Positions 6,988 through 38,673 are shown, counted from the stretch's first letter. The stretch: 54,047 nt of DNA from Candidatus Zixiibacteriota bacterium (GCA_043819555.1 JBDREQ010000078.1:1-54047); one strand, 5' to 3'. A program made the numbers and translations. The notes: generated by a model from the letters alone, not told the origin.

Positions 6988-8823
6988 CTAATTAACGACT
7001 ACCAGCTTGCCTTTAAAATTTGTACCAGCCAAATACCACAAATAAACGCTCGAAGCCACTTCCGACCCTTCAATATTGGTTCCGTCCCAGAAAATATCCT
7101 GGCCGGTAATATTATCCCATGATTTTACCACATCGCCGGTTGGAGTCATCAAAACCAGTGTTCCTTCATCCTGAAATCCTGTAAATGTCGTCGTCGGGGT
7201 GAACGTCATGTCAAACGGATTGGGATAAAAATGCGGCTCGGCTGAGGCCATTGCCTGAGATTGAGAAGAATCAGGATTATTATTCCCCAGATCATCAATA
7301 CTATCGGGTGGAATGGTATCAATAATATTGCTGCCTTCCGGTATGAATATTTTTCCTTCGACGTTTCGAATGGTTGCCGAAGAAACAATCGGGCCAAGGG
7401 TCCCGTCAGCATATAGTTCTTGGAAACTGCCTCCAAGATTATAAGAAACTCCCGAGGGATTTCCATAATTAGAACCCCCTCGCATTCGATACAACATTAG
7501 TGAATTGGTATAATCCCGTCGATAAAGGTTGTAGTTCTGCCCTGCCGGATCGGTCCCGCTGGCGACGACATATCTCGGAGCGGTTGGTGTTCCGATATTA
7601 TATTCAATAGCCCCAAACCATTTAAAACTGGTATCGGCCATCATGAAATCATTGGGACGATGTTCTATAGTATTACCGCACAGCATAAAGAAAAATCTTT
7701 CCGGATTCGCGGCCATATAGTAAAATGTTAACCTTTCCATCTGGCATCTTTCTAAAGATCCCAGCGAAACCACTTCACTGGCGCCACCATCAAAAATGGT
7801 CAGCCAGACGACGGCATATCCGGTATCCCAGACGACAATTGAATCCATATAATCCCAGACAGAACTGCTCCATGTGTATATTATAGGCGAAGCGGCGTTT
7901 TCAAAGATAAATCCGCCCATGCCTGCTTTCCATGTACCATGCCATGGATCAGTCGCTGAAGTTATTGCGCCATAATTTGTCACATTGGCCAAATGCATTT
8001 TATTCGCGCCATACATCGCATCTTCAAAGTCTTTGAGCCATCCTGAGCCATCGGAAGTATTTATCCGTATCTGCTGAAGTTCATTCCTGGCCTGGAGCCA
8101 CGTGTATCCTTCCCAGCCTTTAATATCCGAAACGGTAGTACCTTCGATCCACTTCGTATCATCTCCGCCGGTATTACGAAACGGAAACATCATATGATTG
8201 GCGCCGGTATAAAAATGCGCTTCATCTTCCATTACACCATCCCATTCAGCGCCCATTTCATTTAGAGCTTTCCAGCGGAAATAAGCCGGCGTTCCTTCAT
8301 AACGAAAATCAGCGGCATAACGCTGTTCGGTCCAGCCGCAAAATCCTAATTTTTCGCCTCTATAGCTTCTTCGAATATCGGCGTTGCATCCCGGGCCTGA
8401 ACCATACACAACCGCGCTATCCCCAGAAACCCATAAATAGAGTGAATCGGCAATATATCCCGAATCCGCGCAAAATCCAGGGATCAGGGATACGTCTCCC
8501 GAGCGAATACTGCTCAGGGTTAAGTACTTTATTAGCTTAATATTCGGGTTTTCGCTTCTTAAAGTATTTCTCCATGATGCATTGCCCGGATTAATTACCA
8601 AATCATAATGCTGACCAATAAATGGCATTGCGGCAGTAGCCGAGCCAGAATATGTAATCGTTGCTGTACGAATGTGCTGATACCGGGTCCAATCGTTGGA
8701 TACCATCCACGTTTGTCCGTAAACTCCCGAAACACAAAACAGCGCAATTATGGCAATCAAGGCGATGTATGAATGATTTATCGACTCTCTATGGAACTTT
8801 TGCAAAGATGCAAAGCCAGTCAT
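6988..8823 (-). CDS. Secreted putative glycoside hydrolase (GHL15-like TIM barrel) with C-terminal T9SS-type/FlgD-Ig sorting domain
   Basis: Signal peptide, WDGVMED acidic motif, LYRRDYTNSLML segment and C-terminal YPNPF...WDGTN..G..VASSVY...GKLVVVN. ATG 8823 has a GGGAGA RBS (ORF-track start 8850). Confidence 0.65.
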   Translation of the reverse strand: MTGFASLQKFHRESINHSYIALIAIIALFCVSGVYGQTWMVSNDWTRYQHIRTATITYSGSATAAMPFIGQHYDLVINPGNASWRNTLRSENPNIKLIKYLTLSSIRSGDVSLIPGFCADSGYIADSLYLWVSGDSAVVYGSGPGCNADIRRSYRGEKLGFCGWTEQRYAADFRYEGTPAYFRWKALNEMGAEWDGVMEDEAHFYTGANHMMFPFRNTGGDDTKWIEGTTVSDIKGWEGYTWLQARNELQQIRINTSDGSGWLKDFEDAMYGANKMHLANVTNYGAITSATDPWHGTWKAGMGGFIFENAASPIIYTWSSSVWDYMDSIVVWDTGYAVVWLTIFDGGASEVVSLGSLERCQMERLTFYYMAANPERFFFMLCGNTIEHRPNDFMMADTSFKWFGAIEYNIGTPTAPRYVVASGTDPAGQNYNLYRRDYTNSLMLYRMRGGSNYGNPSGVSYNLGGSFQELYADGTLGPIVSSATIRNVEGKIFIPEGSNIIDTIPPDSIDDLGNNNPDSSQSQAMASAEPHFYPNPFDMTFTPTTTFTGFQDEGTLVLMTPTGDVVKSWDNITGQDIFWDGTNIEGSEVASSVYLWYLAGTNFKGKLVVVN

Positions 8824-8865
8824 AATGTTTCTCCCGATAAACGGTTTCATTACTCTGTTATACTA

Positions 8866-8881
8866 ATCAATATCCATGCCG
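8866..8881 (-). promoter_or_regulatory. sigma-54-like -24/-12 promoter
   Basis: CGGCATGGATATTGAT (GG-N10-GA), ~40 nt upstream of the ATG at 8823. Confidence 0.5.
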
Positions 8882-9037
8882 TTTGAAAAATATCCGACAT
8901 CTGTAACCTAAAGACTTGCAACAACTTAAAAACTATTAAATAGTTGATTAACCGCGGTACTGTATATCGGCAAAACAACTATTCTAATTAATTACGCCGA
9001 AACATTTTAACCCATTATACGGCAACAAACTAAAACT

Positions 9038-9065
9038 ATTGTAAGGAATTTAATCAAGGTGTCAA
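9038..9065 (-). promoter_or_regulatory. Putative sigma-70 promoter
   Basis: TTGACA-N16-TACAAT on the minus strand in the 8850-9146 gap. Confidence 0.5.
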
Positions 9066-9145
9066 CAAAAACCACAATTTACATAAAGTGATTTTTCTTT
9101 ATTTATGGCACTAAGAAATATCGGGGGGTTGTACTTTCTCAATAA

Positions 9146-10585
9146 TTAACTTTTCCTGAATACTGAGATAACTTCGCGCCATACTTCTCGGCAAAAAACA
9201 AATGTCCCCAAAATATAAATCGCACCACCGATGATAATTAGAAGTATTAATTGCAGGAAAAGGTTCATCTGAGTCGGGCCGAGTAAGAATTTCGCCAGAT
9301 AAACACCGCCATACATAATCCCACCCCAAAGGAAGGGCGCCGATAAAATACTTAAATAGTTTTTTATATTTAATCCCGCCGCAGGTAACACTTGAGATAA
9401 CATATATATAAACCAGATTGAATAAGCAATGATCCAGGCCATACTAACGCCTGTGAGTCCCCATTTAATTCCGATTAAAAATGAAGCCGGCATAATGATA
9501 CAGGCCACAAATAAGGTTTTGGCATTTATATCCGGCCGTCCGATGCCATTTATGGCGGGAGTCAAAGACACATTGAGCGCCCGGAGTGGAATAACCAGAC
9601 TGATCAATTGCAGAGGAATAATACTCGGAAACCATTTTTCCTTGAGAATAACCTGAACCATTTCGGGAGCGACGCAGGATATGCCGAAAAAAATCGGAAC
9701 GCCAACAAAACATATAGCACGGCCCGTCATTTTAACATAACGGGCAACCAATTCTTTATTATCCTGTATTTTTGAATAAGCCGGCAGTCCCACCTGGCTC
9801 ATCATAAGGCCGACTTTCTGGAGAGGCATTGTCGCGATATGCATGGCTACCGAATAATATCCCAAAATGTTTGAGCCAAGCAAACGACCGACAATGAAAA
9901 CATCGGCTTGAGTATAAATGTACCACAAAATTCTCTGTAGCGATATAAGTCCGCCAAATTTGGCTGCCCCGCCGAAACCTTTGAAATTAAAACTGGGCAT
10001 CTTAAAAAACGGATGGGCAATATTGATTCCGATGCTTTGAACCGCCGCTCTGACTAAACTCCCAATTACTAAGGCCCAAATGCCATAACCATTCCAGGCC
10101 ATGAAAAGAGTTGCGAGACCGCTTATCAATTCAGCAAAAATTGAGACAATTGAGATTGCTTTAAAATTCATATTACGCTGGAGAATCGAAGTGGGAATTA
10201 CGAAAAAGATCATGATTGGAAATTGTAAAGACAAAATCGGGATTATACTTGTCAGGCGGGGTTCATCGTATATAGACGCGATGATACCCGACCCTAAAAG
10301 CAAGACTAATAAAATTATTCCATTTAGGACAATCACTAATCCAAAAGTCTGCTTTAACATTTTTTCGGATAAATCTTTGATCTGAACAAGAGCAGCGCCC
10401 AATCCCATCTCATTGAGCATTAAACACAAAGCGACAAAAACCATCGCCATCGCCAGAAGGCCATAATCATCGGGATTCAGAAGGCGCATGACATAGATGG
10501 TAATCACCCAGTTGATTATCTGGGTCCCCAGCTTGGCGCCGGAGCTCCATTTTATTCCATGTATGACGCTTGCTTTAAGATCCAA
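9146..10585 (-). CDS. wzx: Polysaccharide flippase (Wzx, PST family)
   Basis: Multi-TM 479 aa protein with RLLNPDDYGLLAMA, D.FIVGRLLG...LGYYS.A and PAYSKIQ signatures. Confidence 0.9.
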   Translation of the reverse strand: MDLKASVIHGIKWSSGAKLGTQIINWVITIYVMRLLNPDDYGLLAMAMVFVALCLMLNEMGLGAALVQIKDLSEKMLKQTFGLVIVLNGIILLVLLLGSGIIASIYDEPRLTSIIPILSLQFPIMIFFVIPTSILQRNMNFKAISIVSIFAELISGLATLFMAWNGYGIWALVIGSLVRAAVQSIGINIAHPFFKMPSFNFKGFGGAAKFGGLISLQRILWYIYTQADVFIVGRLLGSNILGYYSVAMHIATMPLQKVGLMMSQVGLPAYSKIQDNKELVARYVKMTGRAICFVGVPIFFGISCVAPEMVQVILKEKWFPSIIPLQLISLVIPLRALNVSLTPAINGIGRPDINAKTLFVACIIMPASFLIGIKWGLTGVSMAWIIAYSIWFIYMLSQVLPAAGLNIKNYLSILSAPFLWGGIMYGGVYLAKFLLGPTQMNLFLQLILLIIIGGAIYILGTFVFCREVWREVISVFRKS

Positions 10586-10632
10586 TGGTTAACCTATAGA
10601 TAGAATGATGCTTTTGATTAATTTATAAAAGT

Positions 10633-11829
10633 TTAAGTGTTTATCAAATCCGAGATTTTTCGCATCTGATCGTCAAAAATCACATTCCAATCATGGCGAT
10701 TCAGGATGTCGGACACCATATCCGCGTCTGGTGAAAACTCCCCGGAGATGATTTTGCCGGCGCCATCAATAAACTGCTCATCATCCCGAGCAACCAAAAT
10801 CGCCCCCTCGAACGGTAAAATCTCGGGCATATCAATTGAAATCACCGGCAATCCCGCAGCCAGATATTCATATATTTTCAAAGGATTCACTTTTTCAGAA
10901 ATGCCAACTCGTTTGAAAGGATTAATGCCGCAGTCAAAACCCTTGAGATATCCAGGCAACTCCTCAAGTTTCTTTTTTCCGAGAAAATACACATTTCCTA
11001 TGGATTTAAGCATTTCAATATGGGGTCCCGGAACGGCGGGGCCAACAAGAGCGATATTATATTCGGGGTAACGCTCGGCGATTTTTCCAATCAATTCAAA
11101 ATCGATCCATTTTGAAAGTGCTCCAACAAATCCAATCCGGGGTCCGGGTATAGCCGACAGGTCATCCGGAATCTTAGTCTCATCAAGCAGCGCCCGTGAG
11201 AAATGGCTGACTTCCGCGCCATTCGGCGAGAAATACATTTTATCATTCAGATGTTTTCGATCTTCATATAATCCGCGCGCGGTAACGAAAACAATATCAG
11301 CCCGCGACGTCAGATCAAGATCCATCTCATGAACCACGCGAGCGGCTTCAGTCGTATAGCCGATTGTTTCCGAATGCTCATCGACGCAATCATAAACCAG
11401 GATGGATTCATCGAAGCTGCCCCTCATTCGTAAAAACGGAGAATGGGCATGAATTACCGGAGTATAGGTGAATAATACCGGCTTTTGGAATTTTAATTTG
11501 CGGGTATGCTTCCGTATTGAATTGACGTATCTCCTGAAATTTAAATCCCTCATAAACGCAAACCGAGCCAGCGGCAATCTTCCCGGAGGTTTCAATATCC
11601 ATAAGTTTTTCTCAATTTCCTGTATCAAATCGCTCCACTCGCCCTTGTTTCCCTCGGAAGCAAATGTGGTTTCGACCGGTTCCACATAAAGAACGCGATT
11701 GCCGGCCCGCGCCAGAATTGTCATTAACCTCTGTTTGCGAGTCCACATACCGGCATAGGGCATGCTCGAGACGCATATTATATCCTGATTTATCAGGGGT
11801 ACTTCACGGTTCGCGGATGAGTTCTTCAT
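10633..11829 (-). CDS. GT-B glycosyltransferase (GT4/TuaH-like)
   Basis: R.Q.LM, YDCVDEH and NPLKIYEYLAAGLPVIS motifs. ATG 11829 has a GAGGAG RBS. Confidence 0.9.
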   Translation of the reverse strand: MKNSSANREVPLINQDIICVSSMPYAGMWTRKQRLMTILARAGNRVLYVEPVETTFASEGNKGEWSDLIQEIEKNLWILKPPGRLPLARFAFMRDLNFRRYVNSIRKHTRKLKFQKPVLFTYTPVIHAHSPFLRMRGSFDESILVYDCVDEHSETIGYTTEAARVVHEMDLDLTSRADIVFVTARGLYEDRKHLNDKMYFSPNGAEVSHFSRALLDETKIPDDLSAIPGPRIGFVGALSKWIDFELIGKIAERYPEYNIALVGPAVPGPHIEMLKSIGNVYFLGKKKLEELPGYLKGFDCGINPFKRVGISEKVNPLKIYEYLAAGLPVISIDMPEILPFEGAILVARDDEQFIDGAGKIISGEFSPDADMVSDILNRHDWNVIFDDQMRKISDLINT

Positions 11830-12937
11830 ACAACTCCTCATATTTGCTTACCATTAATTTGAGAGACCAATTATCGATAATATTTTGCCTCGCCTTTAGT
11901 CCCATATCGGTTCGCAACTCTTGAGAATCTATTAGTTTTGCCAGAGAAATCACATAATTGTCCCGGTCTCCGGAATTTATTAAATATCCGTTTTCACCAT
12001 TGGTAATAATCGATGGGTTGCCTCCGACCGAGGTTGCCACGACCGGCAATCCGCATGACATCGCTTCCAGAATCGTCAAACTGATTCCTTCGCTTAGTGA
12101 ACTCAAAGTTGAAATGTCAGCCGCAGGAAGTATCCGTGGGACGTCATCGCGGTCTCCCAGAAATTTAATCTTATCGCTGAGGCCAAATAGCGATGTTTGT
12201 TGCTCCAAATCGTCGCGCAATGGTCCGTCGCCGATTATCATAAGCCTGGCCTGGGGATAATCTCTATTAATTTGTTTGAAGACATCAATAAGTAACCCAT
12301 GATTTTTGACCGGCGCCAGCCGGGCAACATTGGCGATAACGATTTCATCCTCAGTGTAACCTAATTCATTCCTGATATCAGCACGCTTGCCAATCGGCTG
12401 GAAGCGATCGGTGTCGATGCAATTATTGATGTTGATGATTTTCTTAGAGGGCAGACAAACCGTCTCGCTCAAATATCTTTGAAGAATAGCGCCAACAGCG
12501 ACAACTTTATCTGTCCACCGCATAGAATATTTATCCATCAATATTTTAAGTTTCTTATCGGGGAAAGTCCGCCCGTGTTCAGTATATATATGGCTTATAT
12601 CAGGAACGTGAGAACAGGCGATGGCGACTTTGAACCAGCAACCCGAATGAGAATGAATAATCTGACATCCGGATTGCTTTATAATCTTAATAAGTTGTGC
12701 CGGGTATAACATAGAAAATCCCGGCATCATCCTCCCGGCCAGTTTAGATTCAATGCCTATATCTGAGAGTTTTTTGGAAAGTGGACCAATTTTATCCAGG
12801 CAGAGAATCTTTATATTAAATCGATTTCTATTAACGCCCGAAGCTAAATTATAAATGATGTTTTCCATTCCGCCTGTTTCCGTTGACAGTACAACATGAA
12901 GTATGGAAATCGATTTTATATCTATGTTATCAGCCAT
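11804..12937 (-). CDS. GT4 glycosyltransferase
   Basis: GGME, TEHG, VARLAPVKNH and SLSEGISLTILEAMSCGLPVVAT motifs. Confidence 0.92.
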   Translation of the reverse strand: MADNIDIKSISILHVVLSTETGGMENIIYNLASGVNRNRFNIKILCLDKIGPLSKKLSDIGIESKLAGRMMPGFSMLYPAQLIKIIKQSGCQIIHSHSGCWFKVAIACSHVPDISHIYTEHGRTFPDKKLKILMDKYSMRWTDKVVAVGAILQRYLSETVCLPSKKIININNCIDTDRFQPIGKRADIRNELGYTEDEIVIANVARLAPVKNHGLLIDVFKQINRDYPQARLMIIGDGPLRDDLEQQTSLFGLSDKIKFLGDRDDVPRILPAADISTLSSLSEGISLTILEAMSCGLPVVATSVGGNPSIITNGENGYLINSGDRDNYVISLAKLIDSQELRTDMGLKARQNIIDNWSLKLMVSKYEELYEELIREP

Positions 12938-13033
12938 CAATCTCAAAATCCATTCTCAATAAACATTTTTCAAAGTTGTCATAATTATAATCTTTCATCG
13001 TTACTATCGGCAACGAGAATATTCCCGGATGTT

Positions 13034-21607: not shown

Positions 21608-22792
21608 CTACAATTGTTTCCCTGATGCTTTTTGAAATTCCATGACAGCATCGGAAAAAAACTTGGCTGCCCAGTTTAAATATTCAAACTTCCCATATTG
21701 TCCATCGATGGGATAAGATCCTTTTATCCCTCCGCGCGTATTCAAATCTTCCGTAGTAACATTTTGAGTTGAACAAACGTAATTAAGCGCCCTTTTGGCG
21801 CCGTCAAGAAACGCTTTGCCTTTTCCCAATGATGAAAGCTTACTCCAGATAATTGACATCTGACATGTTCCGGTCAAACAACTGTAATCGGCAGCGGCGT
21901 TCCATTTATTATCAAAGCGCCCGGCCAGGTACCCATCATCATGAATTAGTTTCAATACTTCCCGGGCGGATTCAGCGGCGGCGGCGATATAATCATTCCG
22001 CGAGGCAGCCAGCCCGCATTCAAGAATGCCTCGAATTGTATATGCAATTGTATGCGTCAGCGGATTGTTATTATCAGTCAGACAATTATTTTCAAACCAT
22101 CCAATCTTATTTCTTTGAGTCAAAGCCCAGTCGATATTTTTCAGCGCTGCCTTAATGTAATTTTCATTTCCTGTGATCTCTCCACCCCGCATCATTGCCC
22201 AGGCGGTACGGACATTATAAGTGTTCAAACCATAAGTTGCCACTACCGAACCATGTTTTGTCCAGGTTCCGTTTTCATCCTGAGCCTCATATAGCCAATG
22301 GCAGGCGCGATCGACCGCATCCTTATACCTGACTTCTCCGCTTTCCTTATATGCGCTAACCCAGCCAAAAATGACCTGTCCGGTGTTGAAAATTGTCGGC
22401 TTTTTTGGCATTGTCGCGACCGTTCCCCCTGGAATCCCGCCTTCGGGGAATTGCTGTTCTAAAAGCCAATCAGCCGCTTTTAATGCTCGCCTCAGGATTT
22501 CCTCGTTTTTAGTTTGGTGATAAAAATCTATCAATGTTGGGATAATATATCCGGTCGTTTCGGGGTAAGACGGCGCCCACCCAGTGAGCAAATTGTAGGC
22601 GCGGGCGAAACCATCATCCGGGGTTGCATCCTGCGCTCTTGTGAGCCAACTTATCGCTTCAGCCAGGTGAGTATTGAGCTCCGTCGGCTTAGATTTAGAC
22701 AAGCCCAATCGATCTTTTAACATTAAACGATAGAGGCCGAATCGCCCTAAACCACTGTCTTGTCGGATATTTTCGTTTCCTGATTTATGCAT
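21608..22792 (-). CDS. (alpha/alpha)-toroid protein of unknown function in polysaccharide loci
   Basis: SYPETTGYIIPT, repeated WL...Q..G helical motifs, FNTGQV, THTIAY and NWAAKFF. Confidence 0.65.
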   Translation of the reverse strand: MHKSGNENIRQDSGLGRFGLYRLMLKDRLGLSKSKPTELNTHLAEAISWLTRAQDATPDDGFARAYNLLTGWAPSYPETTGYIIPTLIDFYHQTKNEEILRRALKAADWLLEQQFPEGGIPGGTVATMPKKPTIFNTGQVIFGWVSAYKESGEVRYKDAVDRACHWLYEAQDENGTWTKHGSVVATYGLNTYNVRTAWAMMRGGEITGNENYIKAALKNIDWALTQRNKIGWFENNCLTDNNNPLTHTIAYTIRGILECGLAASRNDYIAAAAESAREVLKLIHDDGYLAGRFDNKWNAAADYSCLTGTCQMSIIWSKLSSLGKGKAFLDGAKRALNYVCSTQNVTTEDLNTRGGIKGSYPIDGQYGKFEYLNWAAKFFSDAVMEFQKASGKQL

Positions 22793-24609: not shown

Positions 24610-25929
24610 TCAACTTTCGATGATCCTGATATTTTTATTTTCACGATTCCCTCCACATTCACGGGCCGTGTATTCCAAAAACTTATAAAACGGCCCGTCT
24701 TGATTATCAGGATCATTTAATTGGATATATCGGCTGTTTGGGGCATGTTCTTTGGTCACTGGCAAAAGAACTTTTTGGGCGGCAATATAATCGGCGGCAA
24801 CGGGATCAGTCGATGCTATTAGCGCCTTTGGTCGGGCTGATAGTGCTTTGACAATTCTACTGCCATATCCTACCCAATCGGCGGTAATAATATTCAAATC
24901 CGGTTTCCTGACATTTTGAATCCAGTGCCCCAGGGCACCTCCCGTATAATGAAATTCGACCAGATCGGTCTCTTTTAAAAACCTGTTCATCAAATCCCTG
25001 GCCCGCCAATGGAAATTGGCAGTACGCCGAAATCTTTCCCAAAACGCTGAAGTCAGCCCGACATAATGAGTATTAAAAGTATCGTTCGGCTGAGGCGCCG
25101 GATACCCGCACGACATATCGACCACGCCCATGAGGTTTTTCACCGAAGCGGTTACGCCGCAATAAGCTCCATGATGATTGATTGAAGACATATTTATAAA
25201 TTTCACCGGTTGCTTGGTATATCTGCTGTTTTCAAAGGCTCCATTTTTCAAATCAATCGTAATGCCACTATACGAAGATGTCATAATCGGATATGTCATG
25301 ATGCATTTATTGCCGTTTTCAGCCAGATAATAATTGTTTTTGTCCCAAGCATACCCATCTCCCTCTTCCGGCCCGGAAACGACACCGGCGCCGAATGCGT
25401 CGCCCTGCATCGGGGACGGATTACTACCGCCGTCATGCCAATGATATTTAGTGACATTTCTATATCCGGCATCTTGAAAATACTCGACAAGCTGATTCAG
25501 ATTAAAACGGCCATTCGGCACTCGAGTAGTCCAACCGCGGGAATTGTCTTCCTGGAATTGGTGATTGTCGGCAATTATTATCTCGCCTTTGAAATTGGGA
25601 ATATCCAGCATGATCTGTATTAAGGCGGCCATGCTGTCGGTATTGGTCATCCCCTGAAGCCACCATTGAGAATTCGGCTTGATGATGATAATATCATCAC
25701 GTCCGATAATGTTTTCAATACCACCCATTAAATCGATCAGATTGCCGACGTTCTCTTCCGGGGTTCCGCTTTTTACCAGATAAACATCAGATGGCCCCGG
25801 TGCTAATACTCCTTCACTTAATGGCCCCAAACTACCTGACGCCAAGGCTGTTCCTCTTTTTTTAAATACAAATAATCCGGCCATAGCAATAACTAAATCA
25901 TTGATGAATTGTCTGCGGTTCATCCCCAT
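24610..25929 (-). CDS. Tat-exported DUF362-like protein
   Basis: NRRQFI twin-arginine signal, IIIKPN, GVTASVKNLMG and ASTDPVAAD. Confidence 0.75.
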   Translation of the reverse strand: MGMNRRQFINDLVIAMAGLFVFKKRGTALASGSLGPLSEGVLAPGPSDVYLVKSGTPEENVGNLIDLMGGIENIIGRDDIIIIKPNSQWWLQGMTNTDSMAALIQIMLDIPNFKGEIIIADNHQFQEDNSRGWTTRVPNGRFNLNQLVEYFQDAGYRNVTKYHWHDGGSNPSPMQGDAFGAGVVSGPEEGDGYAWDKNNYYLAENGNKCIMTYPIMTSSYSGITIDLKNGAFENSRYTKQPVKFINMSSINHHGAYCGVTASVKNLMGVVDMSCGYPAPQPNDTFNTHYVGLTSAFWERFRRTANFHWRARDLMNRFLKETDLVEFHYTGGALGHWIQNVRKPDLNIITADWVGYGSRIVKALSARPKALIASTDPVAADYIAAQKVLLPVTKEHAPNSRYIQLNDPDNQDGPFYKFLEYTARECGGNRENKNIRIIES

Positions 25930-26058
25930 GAAAAAATTCTCACAGTTTATTAATAATGTCCCGGTTACTCGATAAACATTAATAAATACGGCTGTGAAAT
26001 CAATTACAATTAATCATAATTTGATCAATTATTGGCTGATGAACTTCCCTGAGAAAAT

Positions 26059-27408
26059 TCATTTGCCGTCCTTATATTGGTTAATTAAATCAAGAACTTC
26101 CTGCTCGGTCGCCTGACCATTGCGAAATTGCAATATTTTCCGGTCGATATCAGAACGAGTTACGCTGGGACTATTAAAATCATAACCCTGGACAACCATC
26201 TGGGCTTCATCTATTGTACCCCAGTCAACTTCAGCCAGATAATTGTTCATAAACTTTCTCAGTGGTCCAGCCAGGTTATCTGGATTATTATAAGTCGGAA
26301 ATGACCCTCCCAGAGGATAGACAATATGCTTTGAGGCCCAATAATCCAGGGCTACCGGATCGGTTGATGCCAGGACCGTTTTGGTTTGAACCGGATCAGG
26401 AGCCTGGCGTCCATTATGGCCGCACCATTCAGCAGTGGTGACATGCAAATCGGCCCGTTTAATATTTTTGACATGCATTCCAATGGCGCCGCCTCCCGCT
26501 GGGAATCCCAGACGATGAATATCAGAGTATTGTCCATAAAAGGAACCCGGTAATTCCACTAATCCGTAATAATTTTTTACCGCTCCCGTGACACCGGCAT
26601 AGGTGCTATGAAAGTTCAGGGCTGACATCATAATATAAAAACAATTAGTCGATATATACTGCCCGCCCTGCCAGCAACCGTTTTTGATATCGACGGTAAT
26701 CCCTGAATGAGCCGAAGTAAATATGGGATAACTCATAATCGTCGAGGCATATCCAAGATTCTGGCCGAATTCCCATCCGCTATCAGGTACGAAATATTCA
26801 AGATCGGTTCTTCTAACATATCCGTCGCCATCCGCCGGTCCACTGACTTCGCTGCCGCCTCGACCAATATCCAGTAAATGATACTTACTGATATTAATTT
26901 CTCCGCCATGATCATGAATGGCAGGATATAGGCCCCGGTTATTCCTGTAATAATTCAAAAGCGTATTGACGTTCATGGCGCCGTTATGAGTCATGTCGCT
27001 CGTATTCCACAAATTATCAGTAGTGGAATCAGGATTTGATTTATGAATATTTTCGGCCAAAATGATCTCACCGGTAAAACCGGAAATACCTAATATGGCA
27101 TCAATAAGCCCCTTCAGACAATCGGTATTGGTCCCCCCCTGCAATAACTGTTGGCAATTAATCTTAATAACGACGACATCATCACCGCCAATAAAATTGC
27201 CAATTCCGCCCATGATATCAAAAAGCTTTTCGACATTTTGCGCCGGGGTTCCATTTTTGGCATAAAAAACATTCGAGGTTTTTTTGCTTTCTGACGGATT
27301 CCATTGAATCAGATTCTCAAAAGGTGCATTGGCAACCGCCATGACACCGCCGGCAAAATACCCTGCCTTCCGCAGGAATTCCCGCCTTGTGAGTTTATCT
27401 TCAGCCAT
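26059..27408 (-). CDS. Tat-exported DUF362-like protein (paralog of the neighbour)
   Basis: TRREFL twin-arginine signal, VVIKIN, GVTGAVKNYYG and ASTDPVALD. Confidence 0.75.
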   Translation of the reverse strand: MAEDKLTRREFLRKAGYFAGGVMAVANAPFENLIQWNPSESKKTSNVFYAKNGTPAQNVEKLFDIMGGIGNFIGGDDVVVIKINCQQLLQGGTNTDCLKGLIDAILGISGFTGEIILAENIHKSNPDSTTDNLWNTSDMTHNGAMNVNTLLNYYRNNRGLYPAIHDHGGEINISKYHLLDIGRGGSEVSGPADGDGYVRRTDLEYFVPDSGWEFGQNLGYASTIMSYPIFTSAHSGITVDIKNGCWQGGQYISTNCFYIMMSALNFHSTYAGVTGAVKNYYGLVELPGSFYGQYSDIHRLGFPAGGGAIGMHVKNIKRADLHVTTAEWCGHNGRQAPDPVQTKTVLASTDPVALDYWASKHIVYPLGGSFPTYNNPDNLAGPLRKFMNNYLAEVDWGTIDEAQMVVQGYDFNSPSVTRSDIDRKILQFRNGQATEQEVLDLINQYKDGK

Positions 27409-27448
27409 AATCAATTCGACCTGCTGGAATTAAATGTATATGAATATA

Positions 27449-28346: not shown

Positions 28347-29408
28347 TTATTTTAAAAGAATCATTCTCTTTGAATCGGCAAACTCCTCAGTGGCTATCGT
28401 GTAAAAATATACTCCCGATGAGACTTGATTGCCGTTTCTGTCACGACCGTCCCACTCTGCCGTATAAACACCCTCATTTTGAAACTCATCGACCAAAACC
28501 GCCGTCTGCTGCCCCAGAATATTAAATACAGTGATGGTTACTTGTGTTTCTACCGGAAGAGTATATTCAAATCGGGTATAGGGATTGAATGGATTAGGAT
28601 AATTTTGAGATAATCCAAAACTGGTCGGCAATCCGTCATCGTCATTATTCTGGACAAATTCAAATCCCGCTTCACCGTGATCGATATTTGATATATCCGA
28701 TTCATTATTGGATTCATCGATTGAAACCACAGCCACCCAATACTCCTGCGCTTCGATTAATCCGGTTAAGGTCACTGTCTGCGGTTCTCCCGATTCGACA
28801 GGAGCTGGCGGAGTATTCCATAAATCAGCCAATTGCCAGTTTTCAGCAGTCAAAGTATCGGTAGAATAGGCAATAATATATCGATTAGTCAGGCCTATAT
28901 TCCAGTCGTCTCCCGGAGCCGTCCAGCTCAGGATTAATTCGCCAAAGCTGCCGGTTTCAACCTGCAAATCGGCGATAGGATCGGGAGCCAGAGTATCGAC
29001 AGTAGCTGTAGTTATAGTCAGGACATTGGACAATCCCGACCAGTTAGGAACTTCATCAGCCGCCTTTATAGCGATATAATACTGAATGCCTGAGGCTAGT
29101 CCGGTAATGGCAAATGATTCAGTCGTGTTGGCAACCTTTGGATTTGGCTCATTTTGTACCTGAGTTGCCGTAGCCCAATTGGCATCTGTAATCGGCAATG
29201 TGGAATACCTGATATCGTATCGGTTGGCATAGCCAAACCGCCCATCATCCCCCGGGGCCGTCCATGATACAAGAGCGGCGTTATCCGTTACGGTAGCGGA
29301 TAATAGTTGAGAATTGAGTAGAAGTATCGCTGCTGTCAGAAACAAAAGGGATAGGAAAACTGAATTCGTTACGTCGCAATAATTGAGTTTACAAATCCTG
29401 GCACTCAT
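28347..29408 (-). CDS. Secreted protein with 2 FN3-like repeats and T9SS type-A/FlgD-Ig C-terminal domain
   Basis: Two WTAPGDD...Y.I.YST repeats and C-terminal LSQNYPNPFNP...WDGRD..G..VSSGVYFY...KRMILLK. Confidence 0.9.
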   Translation of the reverse strand: MSARICKLNYCDVTNSVFLSLLFLTAAILLLNSQLLSATVTDNAALVSWTAPGDDGRFGYANRYDIRYSTLPITDANWATATQVQNEPNPKVANTTESFAITGLASGIQYYIAIKAADEVPNWSGLSNVLTITTATVDTLAPDPIADLQVETGSFGELILSWTAPGDDWNIGLTNRYIIAYSTDTLTAENWQLADLWNTPPAPVESGEPQTVTLTGLIEAQEYWVAVVSIDESNNESDISNIDHGEAGFEFVQNNDDDGLPTSFGLSQNYPNPFNPYTRFEYTLPVETQVTITVFNILGQQTAVLVDEFQNEGVYTAEWDGRDRNGNQVSSGVYFYTIATEEFADSKRMILLK

Positions 29409-29455: not shown

Positions 29456-29471
29456 TACAAAATCCGGGCCG
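29456..29471 (-). promoter_or_regulatory. sigma-54-like -24/-12 promoter
   Basis: CGGCCCGGATTTTGTA (GG-N10-GT), ~48 nt upstream of the ATG. Confidence 0.5.
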
Positions 29472-31937: not shown

Positions 31938-32077
31938 AATCTTCCATTTAATCCGGTTAATTATACTCCCTTACGTCCGAATATCAAAAATGTATGGAGT
32001 CTTTTATAAAAATTCAATATATATGTTATATCGAGACGTAAGGCAATTTAATTAACTGAATTTTGCGGGGTTTGATT

Positions 32078-33046: not shown

Positions 33047-33209
33047 ATATTGCAAATCTTTCAGTATGGAAAACGACCAGCCCAAAAACTAATTAATTGA
33101 TGGGTGCATAAATCTCATACTCGATTATTTTGTTTTCAATGTTTTTTCATAAGCAATCGTCTTGTATTCATTCATGCAGCCAGGCTATCGTTTTTTAATG
33201 GAGTGATCC

Positions 33210-34142
33210 ATGAAATTCATCTCTCACAAATTTGTTTTTCTTGTGATAATATTGACGTTATCGATCCCAATCATGACGCAGGCGTCGTCTATAGTCGGTC
33301 AGTTTCCTTTCAAGGTTGACCGCAATAGAACAATATTGCCGGTAAGGATCGGGGAATCGGATACTCTCGATGTTATCCTTGACAGCGGGATGGGTTTTGC
33401 CGGATTTTATTTTTTCCACAGGGAATTAAAAGATCAACTGGGATTGAATACTTTGCGAGAAGTTATTGTTCCCGGGGCGGGAAGCGGCGAAGGTTCCAAA
33501 GCATGGCAGGTTGACTCGGCTACTATTCATATTGGAAGTATGGATTTTGATAACCAAATGGTTATAATTTCCAGGAGTGAATATACTCAGACTTTTCCCA
33601 CTGACGGTGTTGCGGGATGGACTTTATTAGGGCCATACGCTGTTGAAATTGACTATAATAAATTGATTATGACCCTACATGATCCTCAAAAATTGTCCCT
33701 GGATTCGAATTGGACAACTCTGGATATGACACTAAACAAAAAAAACGTTCCTTTTATTGACGTTGCCATAAGTATTGCCGGGGAAGATGATATTCCCATT
33801 TCCTGCTATATAGATTTTGCGGCCGGTGAAGCTATTGAATTGATGGAGAAACAAAGTATGAAATTCGGGTATCCCGATAGCTTAACAAAATCATATTTGG
33901 GTACTGGGCTCAGCGGGGATATTTATGGCAGTTATGGGAGAATTGCCAGTCTTACTATTGCCAATCATAAATTATCTAATGTAAAGGCCGCTTATGCCAG
34001 TGAAGAGGTTCGCTCCAAAATGGAAGGCGCAGATGGTATTATCGGCAATGATGCCCTAAGGCGATTTAATCTAATTTTTGACTATAATAATTTGAAATTA
34101 TATCTGAAACCAAATAGCCATTTTGATGAGCCTTTTGAGTAA
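33210..34142 (+). CDS. Secreted two-lobed retropepsin-like aspartyl protease family protein
   Basis: Signal peptide, ILDSG...DGVAG and YIDFAA...DGIIG...FDY repeats. Confidence 0.8.
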   Translation: MKFISHKFVFLVIILTLSIPIMTQASSIVGQFPFKVDRNRTILPVRIGESDTLDVILDSGMGFAGFYFFHRELKDQLGLNTLREVIVPGAGSGEGSKAWQVDSATIHIGSMDFDNQMVIISRSEYTQTFPTDGVAGWTLLGPYAVEIDYNKLIMTLHDPQKLSLDSNWTTLDMTLNKKNVPFIDVAISIAGEDDIPISCYIDFAAGEAIELMEKQSMKFGYPDSLTKSYLGTGLSGDIYGSYGRIASLTIANHKLSNVKAAYASEEVRSKMEGADGIIGNDALRRFNLIFDYNNLKLYLKPNSHFDEPFE

Positions 34143-34163
34143 ATAAAATATACCCTACAAGAT

Positions 34164-34273
34164 TGTCCATAATATGAACAGTTCGAGTGGCATCACAAAG
34201 GATAGTCGCATAGGGAGTTATCGCAAACATGGGCAGATAATTCCAAAATACTGTTGCATTCCTTAACAGTATT
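34164..34273. promoter_or_regulatory. Two palindromic TGT-N11-ACA sites, putative enhancer-binding-protein sites for the PEP-CTERM promoter
   Basis: TGTCCATAATATGAACA (34164-34180) and AATACTGTT-N9-AACAGTATT (34247-34273), 60-170 bp upstream of the sigma-54 site. Confidence 0.45.
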
Positions 34274-34331
34274 ATGACATATTTCCTGATATTCAATTCG
34301 TATCCCGTTGAATCACAAAGCAATACTATAT

Positions 34332-34347
34332 TGGCACTATTTTTGCT
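34332..34347 (+). promoter_or_regulatory. sigma-54 promoter of the PEP-CTERM genes
   Basis: TGGCACTATTTTTGCT matches the consensus TGGCAC-N5-TTGC. Confidence 0.8.
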
Positions 34348-34392
34348 TAGTAAATTGTTGCACTAAAGCAATTAAGGATTGGGGAGGATTCA

Positions 34393-34988
34393 ATGCGAAA
34401 TATTCTGGTTTTTCTGGTTCTAATACTAATTTCAGGCCCCGCCTTCGGCCAAAGTCTTTTCAATATTCAACAATCATATATACAACACCTTGATGAAGAT
34501 AGTTATCGGCTAAGAATTGAAGTAGACTGGAATGATGATGTGTTGCTGCCACCATCATCATATTATCCTCCCGATTTCAGTGTCGGGCCAGGCCATCCCC
34601 GGTTGAGATACTTCGATTTGTCGACATCGCTTCCCAATACTTATAATTACTATCATGACTTCAACGAATTTCTAATCCATAAATCCCGTCAAATACTATT
34701 CGATGGGAAGGTATCATTTATAGGGGAACAGGGGGCCTAAGAAATGAATTCGGATTTGATTTTGTCTGGGAATCTCCAACACTTAAAACTATGGACTTTA
34801 CATTCTCCGCAACTATTGAGTGGTGGAGCGGAATCACGGAACCGAGTGGCCCATATTATGGACATTTTATGGGCGAAGAAACAAACTCGGGCAATTTTTC
34901 AGCTTACGTTATTCCCGAACCGGCAACAATGTTGCTCCTTGGAATTGGGCTTGCCGGAGTTGGAATAGTAAGAAGGTTGCTTAAATAG
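34393..34988 (+). pseudogene. PEP-CTERM sorting-domain protein 1, frameshifted near 34680
   Basis: Signal-peptide half (34393-34740) and C-terminal half (open from 34683, ...NEFGFDF...VIPEPATMLLLGIGLAGVGIVRRLLK) lie in different frames. Together they align with the downstream paralog. Confidence 0.75.
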
Positions 34989-35031
34989 GTTGCCAATAGT
35001 ATATTCAAAAAAAGCATTGAGGAAAATTAAA

Positions 35032-35616
35032 TTGAAGAAATTTACATTTTTTATTGCATGTATTATTATAGCAGGCCCAACAGTTGGTCAGGGCTTTTTC
35101 AATATTCAAAAATCGTACATCCAACAACTCGATGCAGATAGTTATCGCTTGCGAATAGAAGTGGATTGGGAAGAGGAAACGCTCCCGGCACCATCTGAAC
35201 CTCACTTTTCATATGCTTCGCCGGGATTGCCACAATTTCAATACTTCGAACTATCGTCACCACAGAATACATATAATTTTTATAATAATTACAATGATTA
35301 TTGAGTTTCTTCAAGCCAAACATATACAATATGGGCTCCACATACATATCATAATTTTGGAATCCTTGGAAACGAGTTTGGATTTGACTTTGATGTATCA
35401 GCCACATTATTTGAATCAATGAATTTTTCTTACACAGCCGATATTTATTGGGTGAGTGGGATAACTACTGTTAGCGGAGAAATGTATGGGCTGAACCTGG
35501 CCAGCATGAATTATTCAGGTAATTTTGCGGCTAATGTTATACCCGAACCCACAACATTTATTCTTCTTGGTCTTGGATTAGCAGGCACCGGAATAGTAAG
35601 AAAACTAAGACGATGA
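35032..35616 (+). pseudogene. PEP-CTERM sorting-domain protein 2 with one in-frame TGA (35302-35304)
   Basis: TTG start after GAGG: MKKFTFFIACIIIAGP...NYNDY*VSSSQ...NEFGFDF...VIPEPTTFILLGLGLAGTGIVRKLRR in a single frame. Confidence 0.75.
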
Positions 35617-35686
35617 TTCAATCAAGATTGAATCTTATCCATAGTGTTAGATATCTTGCGTATTTGTAGAATCAAGAATATAAAAT

Positions 35687-37270
35687 TCAGATCTCCTTTA
35701 ATGCCTGTTTATTGACTTTGCCTGATTGATATTTGGGAAGAGTATCCAAAAATTCGACAAATTTCGGAACCTTGTGCATGGCCAGATGAGTTTTGCAAAA
35801 ATCCTGAATTTCTTTGGTTTCAATAGTCTGATTCTCTTTAATGACTATAAATGCTTTGATCGCCTCACCGAGAATGTCGTCTGAGATGCCCACTATTGCC
35901 GTTTCTAAAATCGCCGGATGTTCAAGGAGCTTTTCTTCAATCTCGCGGGCGCTGACCCGATTCCCGCCGACTTTGAGAATCTCTTTTTTACGCGAAACGA
36001 CGTATATCAACCCGTTTTCATCCCGCCGGGCCAGATCACCGGTAAAGAGTTTTCCATCCTTCAAAACTTCGGCCTGCTCTTCGGGCTGGTTGCGGTAGCC
36101 CATCATAACGCAGTCGCCGGAAACGACGATTTCGCCGACTTTCCCATTCGGAACCTCTTCCCCATTTTCACCAATAATATCAATCGTAATTCCCGGAACC
36201 GGAATACCGATTGAGCCGATGTTTTCATCAAGCATATCCGGAGGCAAATAAGTGACTCTCGGCGATGCCTCGGTCTGGCCATACATAATAAATATCTGCT
36301 TGTCCGGGAATGCGTCCATGACTTTTCGGATTACTTCCGGCGCCATTGCTCCCCCGGCCTGAGTCAGATATCTTAATGACGGAAACTTATTGGAATAGAA
36401 ATTGGGATTGTTCAATAGTATCATGAAATTCGAAGGCACACCCGAAAAACCGGTTACTTTTTCACTGGCCATCGTCTCCAAAATTACCTGAGGAAAGGCA
36501 AACCGATTATCGATTACAACTCTTCCACCGGCCAAAATATGAGTCAGCAGAAGCGAGTTGCCATAAATATAATAAAATGGCAGAATGACAATTATCGAAT
36601 CATCCGGACTTAATTCAAGATATTCTACTGTCGCCAAAGTATTGGACATTAAATTACGATGCGACAACATAACGCCTTTAGGCGTGCCGGTGCTCCCAGA
36701 AGTATAAAAGACCGCAGCCAATTCATGGGGCGTATCCCCGATAGCAGTATGAGTCAGATTGTCAACCGGCAATTGCTTTTCTATATCACGGATAAACGCT
36801 TCAAAATTGATTTTTTTATCAGAAATTTCCAGAATCTCAGAAAGAAATTCGGTCCGTTTACCCAATGAAGATAAATCCATTTTGCGGTCAGAAATTATAA
36901 GATCAACCGGAGAATCGGAATCAATGATCTGATTGATATGCCGTGTATACTTTTTCTGGATAAAAAGCCCTTTAGCTCCGCAATCTTTAAGGATAAATTT
37001 GAATTTATCCGGCTTTAGCGATGTGTCCAGCGGGACAGGTATCAAACCAGCGGCGATAATGGAAAAAAACGCCTGAATATACTCAACCGAATTTTCAAAA
37101 AGAACGCCAACGCATGATCCGTGCGGAATTTTCGAACTCTTTAGGAATTCCGAAAGGGTTACAACTGTCTCAATGAGATTTCGGTAGGAAATGTCTTTAT
37201 CACCATGCGTGACCGCAATTTTATCAGGCGATGTCGCTCCGCCTCGTCTGAGAATATCAATAAGTTTCAT
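35687..37270 (-). CDS. ANL-superfamily AMP-dependent acyl/aminoacyl ligase
   Basis: YTSGSTGTPKGVMLSH, MYGQTEA, TGDL and LPKYQSGKV motifs. Confidence 0.92.
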   Translation of the reverse strand: MKLIDILRRGGATSPDKIAVTHGDKDISYRNLIETVVTLSEFLKSSKIPHGSCVGVLFENSVEYIQAFFSIIAAGLIPVPLDTSLKPDKFKFILKDCGAKGLFIQKKYTRHINQIIDSDSPVDLIISDRKMDLSSLGKRTEFLSEILEISDKKINFEAFIRDIEKQLPVDNLTHTAIGDTPHELAAVFYTSGSTGTPKGVMLSHRNLMSNTLATVEYLELSPDDSIIVILPFYYIYGNSLLLTHILAGGRVVIDNRFAFPQVILETMASEKVTGFSGVPSNFMILLNNPNFYSNKFPSLRYLTQAGGAMAPEVIRKVMDAFPDKQIFIMYGQTEASPRVTYLPPDMLDENIGSIGIPVPGITIDIIGENGEEVPNGKVGEIVVSGDCVMMGYRNQPEEQAEVLKDGKLFTGDLARRDENGLIYVVSRKKEILKVGGNRVSAREIEEKLLEHPAILETAIVGISDDILGEAIKAFIVIKENQTIETKEIQDFCKTHLAMHKVPKFVEFLDTLPKYQSGKVNKQALKEI

Positions 37271-37367
37271 GATTTATCTATCGGTTAAATATCCTGTACG
37301 ATTCATATGTTTGATATATATACTCTCCCGAACGAAAAATCATCAACAATCTCCGATAATAAATTTT

Positions 37368-37396
37368 AAAAAGAAAAACCTCCCTGAAGAGGGAGG
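37368..37396 (-). terminator. Rho-independent terminator after the FN3-repeat gene
   Basis: CCTCCCT-CTTC-AGGGAGG followed by TTTTTCTTTTT on the minus strand. Confidence 0.75.
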
Positions 37397-37431
37397 CTTT
37401 CCCGCGATAGAAGAACAAAATATGAGAGGTG

Positions 37432-38673
37432 TTAAACAGCCTGCCGGAACAGATTGACCTGAAAACCTGTTTCCGGCCTGTGATAAACCGCGAAGACATT
37501 ACCCAGATGCTGGGGGGGAGTATTACTATAACGATGATAATTACTGTTCTCAAAAAACCAACTTAAATCTATAATTGATGCCGGAGGCGTAATATCAATG
37601 GTTGTCCCTGTTGCAACATTGGACAATCCTGACCAGTTGGGAACTTCATCGGCCGTCTTAATCGCAAAATAGTATTGCGTATCGGAATTAAGTCCGGTCA
37701 CGGTATATGATTCGCTCGAACCGGAAACTTGCGGTAACGGTTCTCCGGTAACCTGAGTCGCCGCATCCCAGTTGACATCGGTAATTACTGAAAGAGAATA
37801 GCGAATATCATATTGAGTGGCTGTACCGCTATTGCCATCATCTCCCGGAGCGGTCCATGTCAATAATGCCGTAGTGCCTGTGACGGATTGAACGGTTAAA
37901 TTAGCGACCGCAGAGGGCGCCGCCGACTCCAGATCAGTGGTAGTACTTACAATATTGGAAAGCTGTGACCAGTTTGGAGTATCATCGGCCGCTTTAATCG
38001 CGAAATAATACTGGGTATTAGGAAGCAGACCGGTTACCGTAAATGATTCATTTGACCCGGCGACCTGCGGAGAAGGCTCTCCTAAAGCCTGGGTGGCCGC
38101 ATTCCAATTGGCGTCGGTAATCAATGATGTTGAGAACCTGATATCATAAACTGAAGCCGTCCCGACATCATCATCCGCGCCGGGAGCCGTCCAGTTTAAC
38201 GTTACCGAAGCTGACGTTTTAGTATCGATGGATAAGCCGGCAATGCGAGCCGGAGGAGTGTCTGCATCCAATGTAGTCACCGATATAATATTGGATAATC
38301 CCGACCAGTTAGGCATTTCATCAGAAGTTTTAATCGCAATATAATATGTTGTTGATGGAGTCAGCCCCATAATTGTAAATGACTCCGAAGTACCGGCGAT
38401 TTGAGGCGAGGATTCGCCCGTAACCTGATTGGCGCTATTCCAGTTGCCGGCATTAATCATCGATGTCGAGTATCTAATATCATATTCAGAGGCGGTTCCC
38501 GAAGAGCCATCGTCACCGGGAGCAGTCCAGTAGACAGTAATTGTCGTTTGTGTAGCATCGGCGGCAAGGATATGACTATGCGCAACTAATAACATGATTG
38601 TTAATAATATGGCCGTTATCAGGCTGAAATATCCCCTCAATTGTTGGTCTCTATTAAGTACCAAAATCCGCAT
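37432..38673 (-). CDS. Secreted protein with three FN3-like repeats and a ~40 aa C-terminal tail (no T9SS CTD)
   Basis: Three WTAPG.D...YDIR(Y/F)S...NW..A.Q..GE..PQ..G..ES...GL...T.YY.AIK..D..PNWS.LSN repeats. Confidence 0.9.
   Translation of the reverse strand: MRILVLNRDQQLRGYFSLITAILLTIMLLVAHSHILAADATQTTITVYWTAPGDDGSSGTASEYDIRYSTSMINAGNWNSANQVTGESSPQIAGTSESFTIMGLTPSTTYYIAIKTSDEMPNWSGLSNIISVTTLDADTPPARIAGLSIDTKTSASVTLNWTAPGADDDVGTASVYDIRFSTSLITDANWNAATQALGEPSPQVAGSNESFTVTGLLPNTQYYFAIKAADDTPNWSQLSNIVSTTTDLESAAPSAVANLTVQSVTGTTALLTWTAPGDDGNSGTATQYDIRYSLSVITDVNWDAATQVTGEPLPQVSGSSESYTVTGLNSDTQYYFAIKTADEVPNWSGLSNVATGTTIDITPPASIIDLSWFFENSNYHRYSNTPPQHLGNVFAVYHRPETGFQVNLFRQAV

Follow-up and report, generated by a model that had tools for sequence, protein, structure and literature searches.

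Fibronectin type III proteins with an open first domain and a spare first strand: a candidate strand-complementation system in an exopolysaccharide locus of Zixibacteria

Three secreted proteins and their first strands

The DNA considered here is a contig of 54,047 nucleotides (GCA_043819555.1, JBDREQ010000078.1:1-54047; contig C78, the whole of which is termed the window) from a Candidatus Zixiibacteriota bacterium whose 3.35-Mb genome, labelled G000, is 97% complete. An exopolysaccharide (EPS) gene cluster spans window positions 5870-41830, and within it three genes, all on the minus strand, encode two secreted proteins with fibronectin type III (FN3) domains, P1 and P2, and a secreted glycoside-hydrolase-like protein, P3. 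The arrangement of first strands in these proteins is suggestive of an assembly in which a beta strand carried at the end of one polypeptide would complete the open first domain of another.

P1 (37432..38673) is a candidate acceptor-plus-donor subunit of 413 amino acids, composed of a signal peptide, three FN3 domains, an orphan first strand and a C-terminal tail, and it is matched in three stretches by Pfam fn3 (PF00041; 106.5 bits, cut-off 25). The signal peptide (residues 1-37; 38563..38673) has a hydrophobic stretch and an A-x-A-like site that are conserved in orthologs, with cleavage predicted after ...HILA; cleavage sites were placed by the -3/-1 rule and by the ortholog-conserved junction of ...xA with A(D/E/T)ATPT. 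The public gene call for P1 (P0004, 387 amino acids) begins at M27, within the hydrophobic leader (38595-38673, minus strand). Because AGGAG lies 6 nucleotides before the ATG at 38673, and in view of the orthologs, the longer start with a proper signal peptide is favoured.

Domain 1 of P1 (38269..38562) is an FN3 domain without its first (A) strand, as the AlphaFold2 (AF2) monomer described below also shows, and is the candidate acceptor. Domains 2 and 3 (37597..38268) are complete and include a first strand each (mature residues 108-115 and 220-227), the internal first-strand sequences being DTPPARIAGL at residues 138-147 and SAAPSAVANL at residues 250-259. Beyond the third domain stands one further first strand with no FN3 body behind it, DITPPASIIDLS (37561..37596; residues 360-371; core DITPPASIIDL), which is the candidate donor. 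It is followed by a tail of 42 amino acids (37435..37560) that is kept only in the closest genera and has an AF2 predicted local distance difference test (pLDDT) score below 50.

P2 (28347..29408), the candidate anchored acceptor, comprises 353 amino acids in the order signal peptide, A-less FN3 domain, FN3 domain and type IX secretion system (T9SS) C-terminal sorting domain (CTD), and is matched by Pfam fn3 in two stretches (47.3 bits). Its first domain (29004..29294) lacks the first strand, with the mature start predicted at TVTDNAALVSW and the Pfam fn3 match running from profile position 7, and its internal first strand is DTLAPDPIADL (residues 138-148). The sorting domain (28350..28601) exceeds the cut-offs of both TIGR04183 (36.6 against 23) and PF18962 (28.5 against 27), and is also matched by the CTD part of the PorU model (C78:28383-28613). 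In profile searches the genome contains SprA, PorU and more than 40 CTD matches, and type IX secretion is thus present. The CTD-class paralogs P0034, P0046, P0066 and P0111 start without an A strand, as does domain 1 of P2.

In the N-terminal FN3 domain of both proteins the hydrophobic signal region leads directly into the B strand (P1 ...HSHILAADATQTTITVYWTAPG; P2 ...QLLSATVTDNAALVSWTAPG): the leader of P1 runs into ADATQTTITVYW and that of P2 into TVTDNAALVSW, neither with the form (D)xxPPxxIxxL. The register of these ends is also telling. In the internal repeats the conserved leucine of the first strand precedes the tryptophan of the B strand by 14 residues, and the mature N-terminus of P1 lies 11 residues before that tryptophan, at the point where the conserved part of the orphan (...IIDLS) ends. 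Four matches to a strict form of the motif were counted among the 8733 stop-to-stop frames of at least 80 amino acids in the genome, and three of the four are in P1 and P3, so that the pattern is not attributable to chance. An earlier note on this DNA had claimed that (D)xxPPxxIxxL opens each internal FN3 repeat of P1 and P2, that the N-terminal repeats lack it, that orphan copies stand in P1 and P3, and that the two-repeat protein carries a CTD; each of these features is present where the note had placed it.

A frameshifted fourth repeat was considered for the end of P1 and rejected, since the other two frames past the orphan are stop-ridden and hold no FN3 continuation; P1 is intact. A PEP-CTERM or other sortase-type tail was likewise rejected, there being no hydrophobic helix or basic cluster, as judged by eye only. 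Downstream of the P1 stop codon the sequence can be read, by eye and with no terminator scan, as a terminator-like hairpin with a T run.

P3 (6988..8850; 620 amino acids) consists of a glycoside-hydrolase-like part, a linker with the first-strand motif, and a CTD-like domain. Its gene start is doubtful in a similar way to that of P1, being called from M10. The body-less motif, DTIPPDSIDDLG (7285..7320; residues 511-522), lies between the catalytic part and the CTD-like domain (6991..7218), which is 31% identical over 78 amino acids to the sorting domain of P2 (E = 3e-6 in a single comparison). This domain also weakly matches the C-terminal part of the PorZ model NF052228 (E = 1.6e-6, far under the whole-protein cut-off), and no CTD family reaches its cut-off, TIGR04183 and PF18962 having been tested. 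No Pfam or NCBIfam family was found for the catalytic part, P0003 yielding no Pfam family even at E up to 5, and P0130 is the only homolog to match GHL15 (PF14885), at 21.7 bits and below the cut-off of 27. By language-model features, residues 45-505 fall close to GHL15 clusters (score 0.96, 28 of 30 matches). Because the AF2 model of P3 is poor (mean pLDDT 60, with the motif linker below 50), Foldseek gives only a fold class, all matches being glycoside hydrolase TIM barrels at low TM scores (0.15-0.43, normalised to either length), and a PDB sequence search returned one chance-level match (E = 0.15). The label of a glycoside-hydrolase-like protein with a CTD-like end is a fair but soft one. 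As for the motif itself, it is identical in the ortholog from the genome G001 (P0125) and absent in P0127 and P0129, and the homolog P0130 ends with a similar motif directly ahead of its stop codon, an arrangement resembling that of a donor.

Conservation, gene pairing and predicted structure

The open start and the spare strand belong together. In an alignment of 22 sequences including P1, at 56-82% identity to P1, the A-less N-terminus and the orphan strand occur jointly in all 22, a plan common to nine orthologs of about 413 amino acids and to twelve proteins of 364-389 amino acids from other lineages. The mature chain of the orthologs starts A(D/E/T)ATPT..ITxxW after a leader ending in ...xA, and the third FN3 domain is followed by D-x-(T/I/V)-P-P-(A/S)-x-(I/V)-x-D-L and then either by a stop within 3-15 residues or by a tail. 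In the nine orthologs from the closest genera this tail reads ...R(K/P)ET(D/G)xx(I/V)(S/N)L... and ends in ...ISLSGQLSA or ...VNLFRQxx; it is absent from the class of about 380 amino acids.

Within the orphan, all 22 rows agree at D323 and P327, and conservation at P326 and L333 is 90% or higher. Expressed as the mean top-residue frequency by region of the same alignment, conservation is 0.75 for the orphan strand and 0.75-0.78 for the FN3 bodies, as against 0.61 and 0.59 for the internal first strands of domains 2 and 3 and 0.20 in the 12-residue stretch that follows the orphan. By these figures purifying selection acts on the orphan, and more strongly than on the internal first strands, whose structural job is known. 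The orphan aligns by eye with the first strand of the fourth FN3 domain in CTD paralogs of 580 amino acids (TADNIAPNPITDL...), and on account of this alignment its origin would most simply be a truncated repeat or paralog that has since been kept under selection.

To place P1 in its family, 119 homologs were classed by a rough regular-expression script and partly re-read by eye. A signal peptide, an A-less start and a CTD are combined in 51 of the 119, and 21 have a signal peptide, an A-less start and an orphan strand at which the protein ends; P0050, P0104 and P0120 were added to the latter by eye. A full first strand at the start was filed for 20 homologs, three of which (P0049, P0071 and P0099) also scored as orphan-ended and were taken by eye as errors of the script. 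The remaining homologs are cut by contig ends or carry other domains. In a lipoprotein paralog on contig C29 the first FN3 domain does possess a complete first strand, and the FN3 family can therefore start with one.

Donor proteins also tend to be found near candidate acceptors. In six related genomes, and at the locus L018 of a Zixibacteriota metagenome-assembled genome, a donor adjoins or shares its locus with an A-less CTD protein. The donors vary in length, with one FN3 domain (L018, and L121 of G022), two (G006, G010 and P0089) or three. For instance, the two-FN3 donor of G006 adjoins a CTD protein of 583 amino acids, that of G010 lies between two CTD proteins, and at L018 a one-FN3 donor is followed by a one-FN3 CTD acceptor. 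The one-FN3 donor of G022 was detected only in a second, more sensitive search. In G001, G002 and G011 a common order is kept, namely Wzz, a divergent PorV/PorQ-like gene, P1, the adenosine monophosphate (AMP) ligase ... amidotransferase and a P2-class gene. A search for donors in other phyla returned only L018 among 52 loci, by a script with a strict regular expression that may miss others. Beside the two-FN3 donor of G006 (contig C30, locus L101, 440-2060, minus strand), an open reading frame (ORF) with the exosortase-like motifs YSHG and EACSGLRS and an EpsI-like ORF were noted by eye.

The AF2 monomer of mature P1, computed with the 22-row alignment, has three confident FN3 domains (mean pLDDT 85.5). 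Domain 1 is modelled at a pLDDT of about 90 with no A strand, and its B strand lies at mature residues 8-13. All five monomer models leave the orphan unplaced in cis, confidence falling from 82 to 51. The earlier note had raised binding in cis alone as a point that would speak against its proposal, and the monomers make no such use of the strand.

When domain 1 (mature residues 1-99) was paired with domain 3 plus the tail (mature residues 212-376), the complex model reached a score of 0.75, the best of three controls scoring 0.02; the mark of 0.75 is reached by 116 of 157 solved complexes and by 2 of 215 mismatched pairs. Contact agreement between runs was at least 81%, and the pLDDT of the partner at least 76. 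The partner contributes only mature residues 322-336, the orphan strand, to the predicted interface, touching domain 1 at residues 8-13, 75-81 and 85-93, with W12 of the core in contact with I330 and L333. In the model the orphan lies antiparallel to strand B (8-13) and parallel to strand G (85-93), the position and orientation that a first strand has in a native FN3 domain. The expectation that the orphan would fill an empty A-strand groove thus agrees with the model, where it is predicted to occupy the vacant slot in native register.

The surrounding locus and a sigma-54-like element

Alignment of the upstream regions brought out an element shared by the three genes. The 13-mer GGCCCGGAWTTTG has only two occurrences in the genome, 48 nucleotides upstream of P1 and 48 nucleotides upstream of P2. 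The sigma-54-like element of P1 is TGGCCCGGAATTTGAT (38721..38736, minus strand), kept upstream of its orthologs in G001, G002 and G011, and that of P2 is CGGCCCGGATTTTGTA (29456..29471, minus strand), likewise kept in orthologous upstream regions. P3 is preceded by a looser version, CGGCATGGATATTGAT (8866..8881, minus strand), which reads CGGCATGGATTTTGAT in the G001 ortholog. All three share the GG and the spacing of the consensus TGGCAC-N5-TTGC (GG at -24, GC at -12); because the -12 part reads TTGA or TTGT and not TTGC, the wording 'sigma-54-like' is apt. RpoN is encoded in the genome. Of the shared promoter that the earlier note had proposed, the sigma-54-like element is supported, with a common 13-mer for P1 and P2, a looser match for P3, and all three kept in orthologs.

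A consensus sigma-54 scan of the window allowing up to two mismatches gave 42 sites, against 38 expected, and hence no enrichment. The looser pattern YGGYMY-N5-TTG has 11 matches in the window, five of them intergenic, and four of these five lie 16-48 nucleotides upstream, on the right strand, of P1, P2, P3 and a secreted ORF at 34393-34740. The product of this ORF is a small protein of 115 amino acids with a signal peptide and no family match (34332-34740 including the site, plus strand), and it begins 46 nucleotides downstream of TGGCACTATTTTTGC, a perfect sigma-54 consensus. No such site in the window is better, and the gene of this small secreted protein may therefore share a regulon with P1, P2 and P3. 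To judge from these upstream sequences, a sigma-54-like element seems to co-regulate P1, P2 and P3 within a putative exosortase-type EPS locus, which fits a role in a matrix or surface fibre.

The EPS cluster itself encodes a Wzx-type flippase, several glycosyltransferases, a Wzy/O-ligase-like protein and a chain-length determinant, together with an asparagine-synthase-type amidotransferase, an AMP-forming ligase, two alpha/beta hydrolases and a FemAB-type protein. The last of these (TIGR03019, 350 bits, cut-off 260) is the sole model of the XrtA/PEP-CTERM set in NCBIfam to be matched above its cut-off, and matches below the cut-off were obtained with the ligase, amidotransferase, hydrolase 1 and 2, O-ligase and chain-length models of that set. 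The single exosortase of the genome lies on another contig (C63:45700-46458). Two tandem DUF362-domain proteins (439 and 451 amino acids; 24610-27414, minus strand) and a prenyltransferase/terpene-cyclase-like protein (21608-22792) are also encoded within the cluster and conserved in G001.

Divergent from P1 is a gene for a PorV/PorQ-family outer-membrane barrel (39216..40142, plus strand; NF033709, 154.4 bits against a cut-off of 90). Its adjacency to P1 is kept in G001, G002 and G011, the barrel being only 39-41% identical in two of these, and by this neighbourhood it could be an anchor or export partner of the CTD-less P1. An identity as FilD was considered for the barrel gene and dropped, the match being weak (E = 1.7e-4).

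Several dockerin-bearing proteins were noted in passing. Within the window these are a secreted DUF7901 and dockerin protein (3-3098, minus strand) and a secreted dockerin protein of 248 amino acids adjoining P2 (27449-28195, minus strand), and on contig C33 of the same genome (about 35081-35368, minus strand) a single A-less FN3 domain is joined to a dockerin. The C29 lipoprotein (7710-8978, plus strand) has two complete FN3 domains and a C-terminal domain that is cohesin-like by eye. Because of these proteins, the organism may have a second display system of the cohesin-dockerin style.

A strand-complementation model and its alternatives

The preferred reading, for which we consider the chances to be about evenly balanced, is that members of the P1 family are secreted FN3 rods, with an open first domain, n FN3 domains and a spare first strand, that are complemented in trans. 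Signal peptidase would cut the leader and leave domain 1 without strand A, with the edge of strand B and the core tryptophan uncovered, while the C-terminus would offer one body-less extra copy of exactly the missing strand. Insertion of this spare strand in trans into the open domain of another molecule would restore normal FN3 topology, a case of donor-strand complementation. The receiver could be another P1, which would result in head-to-tail chains, or a member of the CTD-bearing P2 class, fixed to the surface by type IX secretion, which would anchor or cap; the product might accordingly be a polymer or a 1:1 pair. P1 would be displayed at the cell surface after crossing the outer membrane perhaps bound to P2, or perhaps via the neighbouring PorV/PorQ-family barrel. 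With a single beta strand as the plug, strand-bearing enzymes such as P3 and P0130 could hang on free acceptors. The acceptor-and-donor logic advanced in the earlier note is upheld by the joint occurrence of open start and orphan, by the constraint on the orphan and by the predicted complex. A true filament with a base and a tip, as also envisaged there, is a good deal more doubtful.

A number of observations weigh against this reading. The whole case is in silico, and the score of the complex model may reflect a memorised FN3 fold, so that it speaks to the fit of the strand and not to binding. Domain 1 is modelled with high confidence in the absence of the strand and therefore may be stable alone. 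Chaperone-usher genes were sought with PF00345 and PF00577 and gave no matches in the 97%-complete genome, the controls matching in E. coli. P1 has no CTD match, lipobox or other known outer-membrane route, and the tail of some 40 amino acids in the 413-amino-acid class is unaccounted for by a strand model. Furthermore, no donor was found in G016, G025, G028 or G036 (10 of 30 loci inspected), and starts with no A strand or only half of one abound in this FN3 subfamily, occurring also on FN3-dockerin proteins (C33; G036) and with other C-terminal domains. In the case of P3, the motif lies in the low-confidence linker and is followed by the protein's own CTD, and in the homolog P0128 a complete FN3 domain starts with this motif. 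A donor-only hydrolase capping the chain, as the earlier note had it, is accordingly doubtful: the orphan motif is there, but so is a CTD-like domain, and the P0128 arrangement is of the kind that the note had counted against its proposal. P3 may act as a strand donor; a stump of a lost FN3 domain explains its motif equally well.

The alternative that survives best, though we regard it as unlikely, is that the orphan, together with the tail in the 413-amino-acid class, is a docking or sorting element for some other partner, chiefly the PorV/PorQ-family barrel. In the PorU-PorV and PorZ-PorQ sub-complexes a surface protein is held by a barrel of this family, PorU and PorZ using a retained CTD for the purpose. 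The barrel would hold P1 as PorQ holds PorZ, and the A-less first domain would be an unrelated habit of the family. The barrel gene, well above its cut-off (154.4 bits against 90), stays divergent beside P1 in G001, G002 and G011 despite an identity of 39-41%, the tail is conserved in the same genera as this adjacency, and P1 is a protein without a known export signal. The likeness to PorU and PorZ is drawn from gene neighbourhood alone, however, and P1 has no CTD. The donors of about 380 amino acids, and those with two FN3 domains or one, retain the strand but not the tail, and no PorV/PorQ-like ORF was matched beside the donors in the G006 and G010 stretches, the one in G034 being about 8 kb off. 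Moreover, the orphan has the sequence of an FN3 first strand and is put by the model in an FN3 slot.

Slightly less probable again is the possibility that the orphan is the leftover of a four-FN3 CTD paralog cut after the first strand of repeat 4, now a spacer or cap, and that the motif of P3 is likewise a stump. Cutting a repeat array out of phase would, without any function being required, produce a start that lacks strand A and an end that consists of nothing else, and both the by-eye alignment with the fourth-FN3 first strand of the CTD paralogs and the P3 motif that heads a complete FN3 domain in P0128 are as this explanation would have it. A neutral stump should, however, decay like its flank, whereas the orphan stands at 0.75 and the next 12 residues at 0.20, with an aspartate and a proline invariant over 22 sequences and conservation above that of internal first strands that have a structural job. 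The same ending is found, too, on proteins with one, two and three FN3 domains and on the non-FN3 enzyme P0130. The earlier note had counted a truncated fourth repeat against its own proposal; as an origin for the P1 orphan this fits, but the selection under which the strand has since been kept does not go with a mere remnant. Closure in cis, with the C-terminal strand entering the protein's own domain 1 to form a closed three-domain ring, would agree with the one donor and one acceptor per chain and with the exactly three FN3 domains of many members, but it is very improbable, as AF2 does not predict it (the strand is left unplaced in all five monomers, with confidence of 82 and then 51), the inter-domain linkers are only about 5 residues long, and a ring is sterically unlikely in the donors that have one or two FN3 domains.

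A handful of dedicated pilin folds are known to assemble by strand donation, and complementation of P1 in trans can be compared with these. Like the subunits of donor-strand pili, domain 1 of P1 has one strand missing, in 22 of 22 sequences and in AF2, with a groove presumed in its place; the seven strands, A included, that are expected of every FN3 domain are found in domains 2 and 3 but not in domain 1. In type V pili (FimA and Mfa1, with the anchors FimB and Mfa2 and tip subunits) a protease removes an N-terminal strand to create a groove, which the C-terminal strand of the next subunit fills. The chain is ended at the base by an anchor subunit (PMC8512630). With an N-terminal opening, C-terminal donation and an anchor at the base, and with their occurrence in bacteria that have type IX secretion, type V pili are the nearest mechanism to that proposed for P1. 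Their pilins, in contrast, are lipoproteins of the FimA fold cleaved by a gingipain-type protease, whereas P1, an ordinary FN3 protein, would be opened simply by loss of its signal peptide and would have a T9SS CTD protein as its base. P1 has no leader cysteine, and no FimA-family match was among the 12 Pfam families listed; with neither a lipobox nor the FimA fold, P1 falls outside the type V pili. Chaperone-usher pili (Pap/Fim, Caf1) likewise pair an incomplete immunoglobulin-like sandwich with a strand from a neighbour and have separate shaft, tip and terminator subunits. There, however, it is the C-terminal G strand that is missing and an N-terminal extension that is donated, a polarity opposite to that of P1, and assembly needs a PapD chaperone and an usher, neither of which was found in this genome.

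Donor-strand polymers that manage without chaperones or with minimal machinery are also known from the biofilm matrix and the cell surface. Archaeal cannulae are reportedly donor-strand polymers of this kind. Donor-strand exchange is reported to drive the assembly of TasA fibres in Bacillus subtilis (PMC9674648), and in the Pam pili of the Candidate Phyla Radiation (CPR) the donated strand and its binding site are described as the most conserved regions (PMC13278184). Polymers of this minimal kind have thus come to light more than once. The high conservation of the P1 orphan offers a parallel to the conserved donor of the Pam pili. TasA fibres, Pam pili and cannulae nevertheless have other folds and an N-terminal or linker donor; none is known to have FN3 domains of the 'WTAPGDD' type with a C-terminal orphan strand, or to be tied to a T9SS or to an exosortase-type EPS locus. 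Cohesin-dockerin pairs are also a modular plug and socket on an anchored scaffold, and dockerin proteins are present in this window and genome, but such pairs join two folded domains, whereas P1 would have one fold completed by a strand. Searches of the open-access literature returned no description of an FN3-based donor-strand filament and no paper joining Zixibacteria with fibronectin type III.

If P1 proteins are indeed complemented in trans, they would represent a new variant of donor-strand assembly, in which one of the most common extracellular domains is made self-linking by deletion of a strand at one end and addition of that strand at the other. Two recombinant proteins and a single peptide would suffice for a direct test, and a pair so small would be of use in protein engineering as a peptide tag and its acceptor. 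In a wider sense, and only tentatively, Zixibacteria and their neighbours may assemble ordinary FN3 domains into surface fibres or display chains by a chaperone-free strand complementation that is primed by signal peptidase, with CTD acceptors as the anchors. Such a system would link type IX secretion to the building of a matrix or fibre within an exopolysaccharide locus, and would offer a starting point for assigning functions to the many FN3-CTD proteins found in uncultured FCB-group bacteria.

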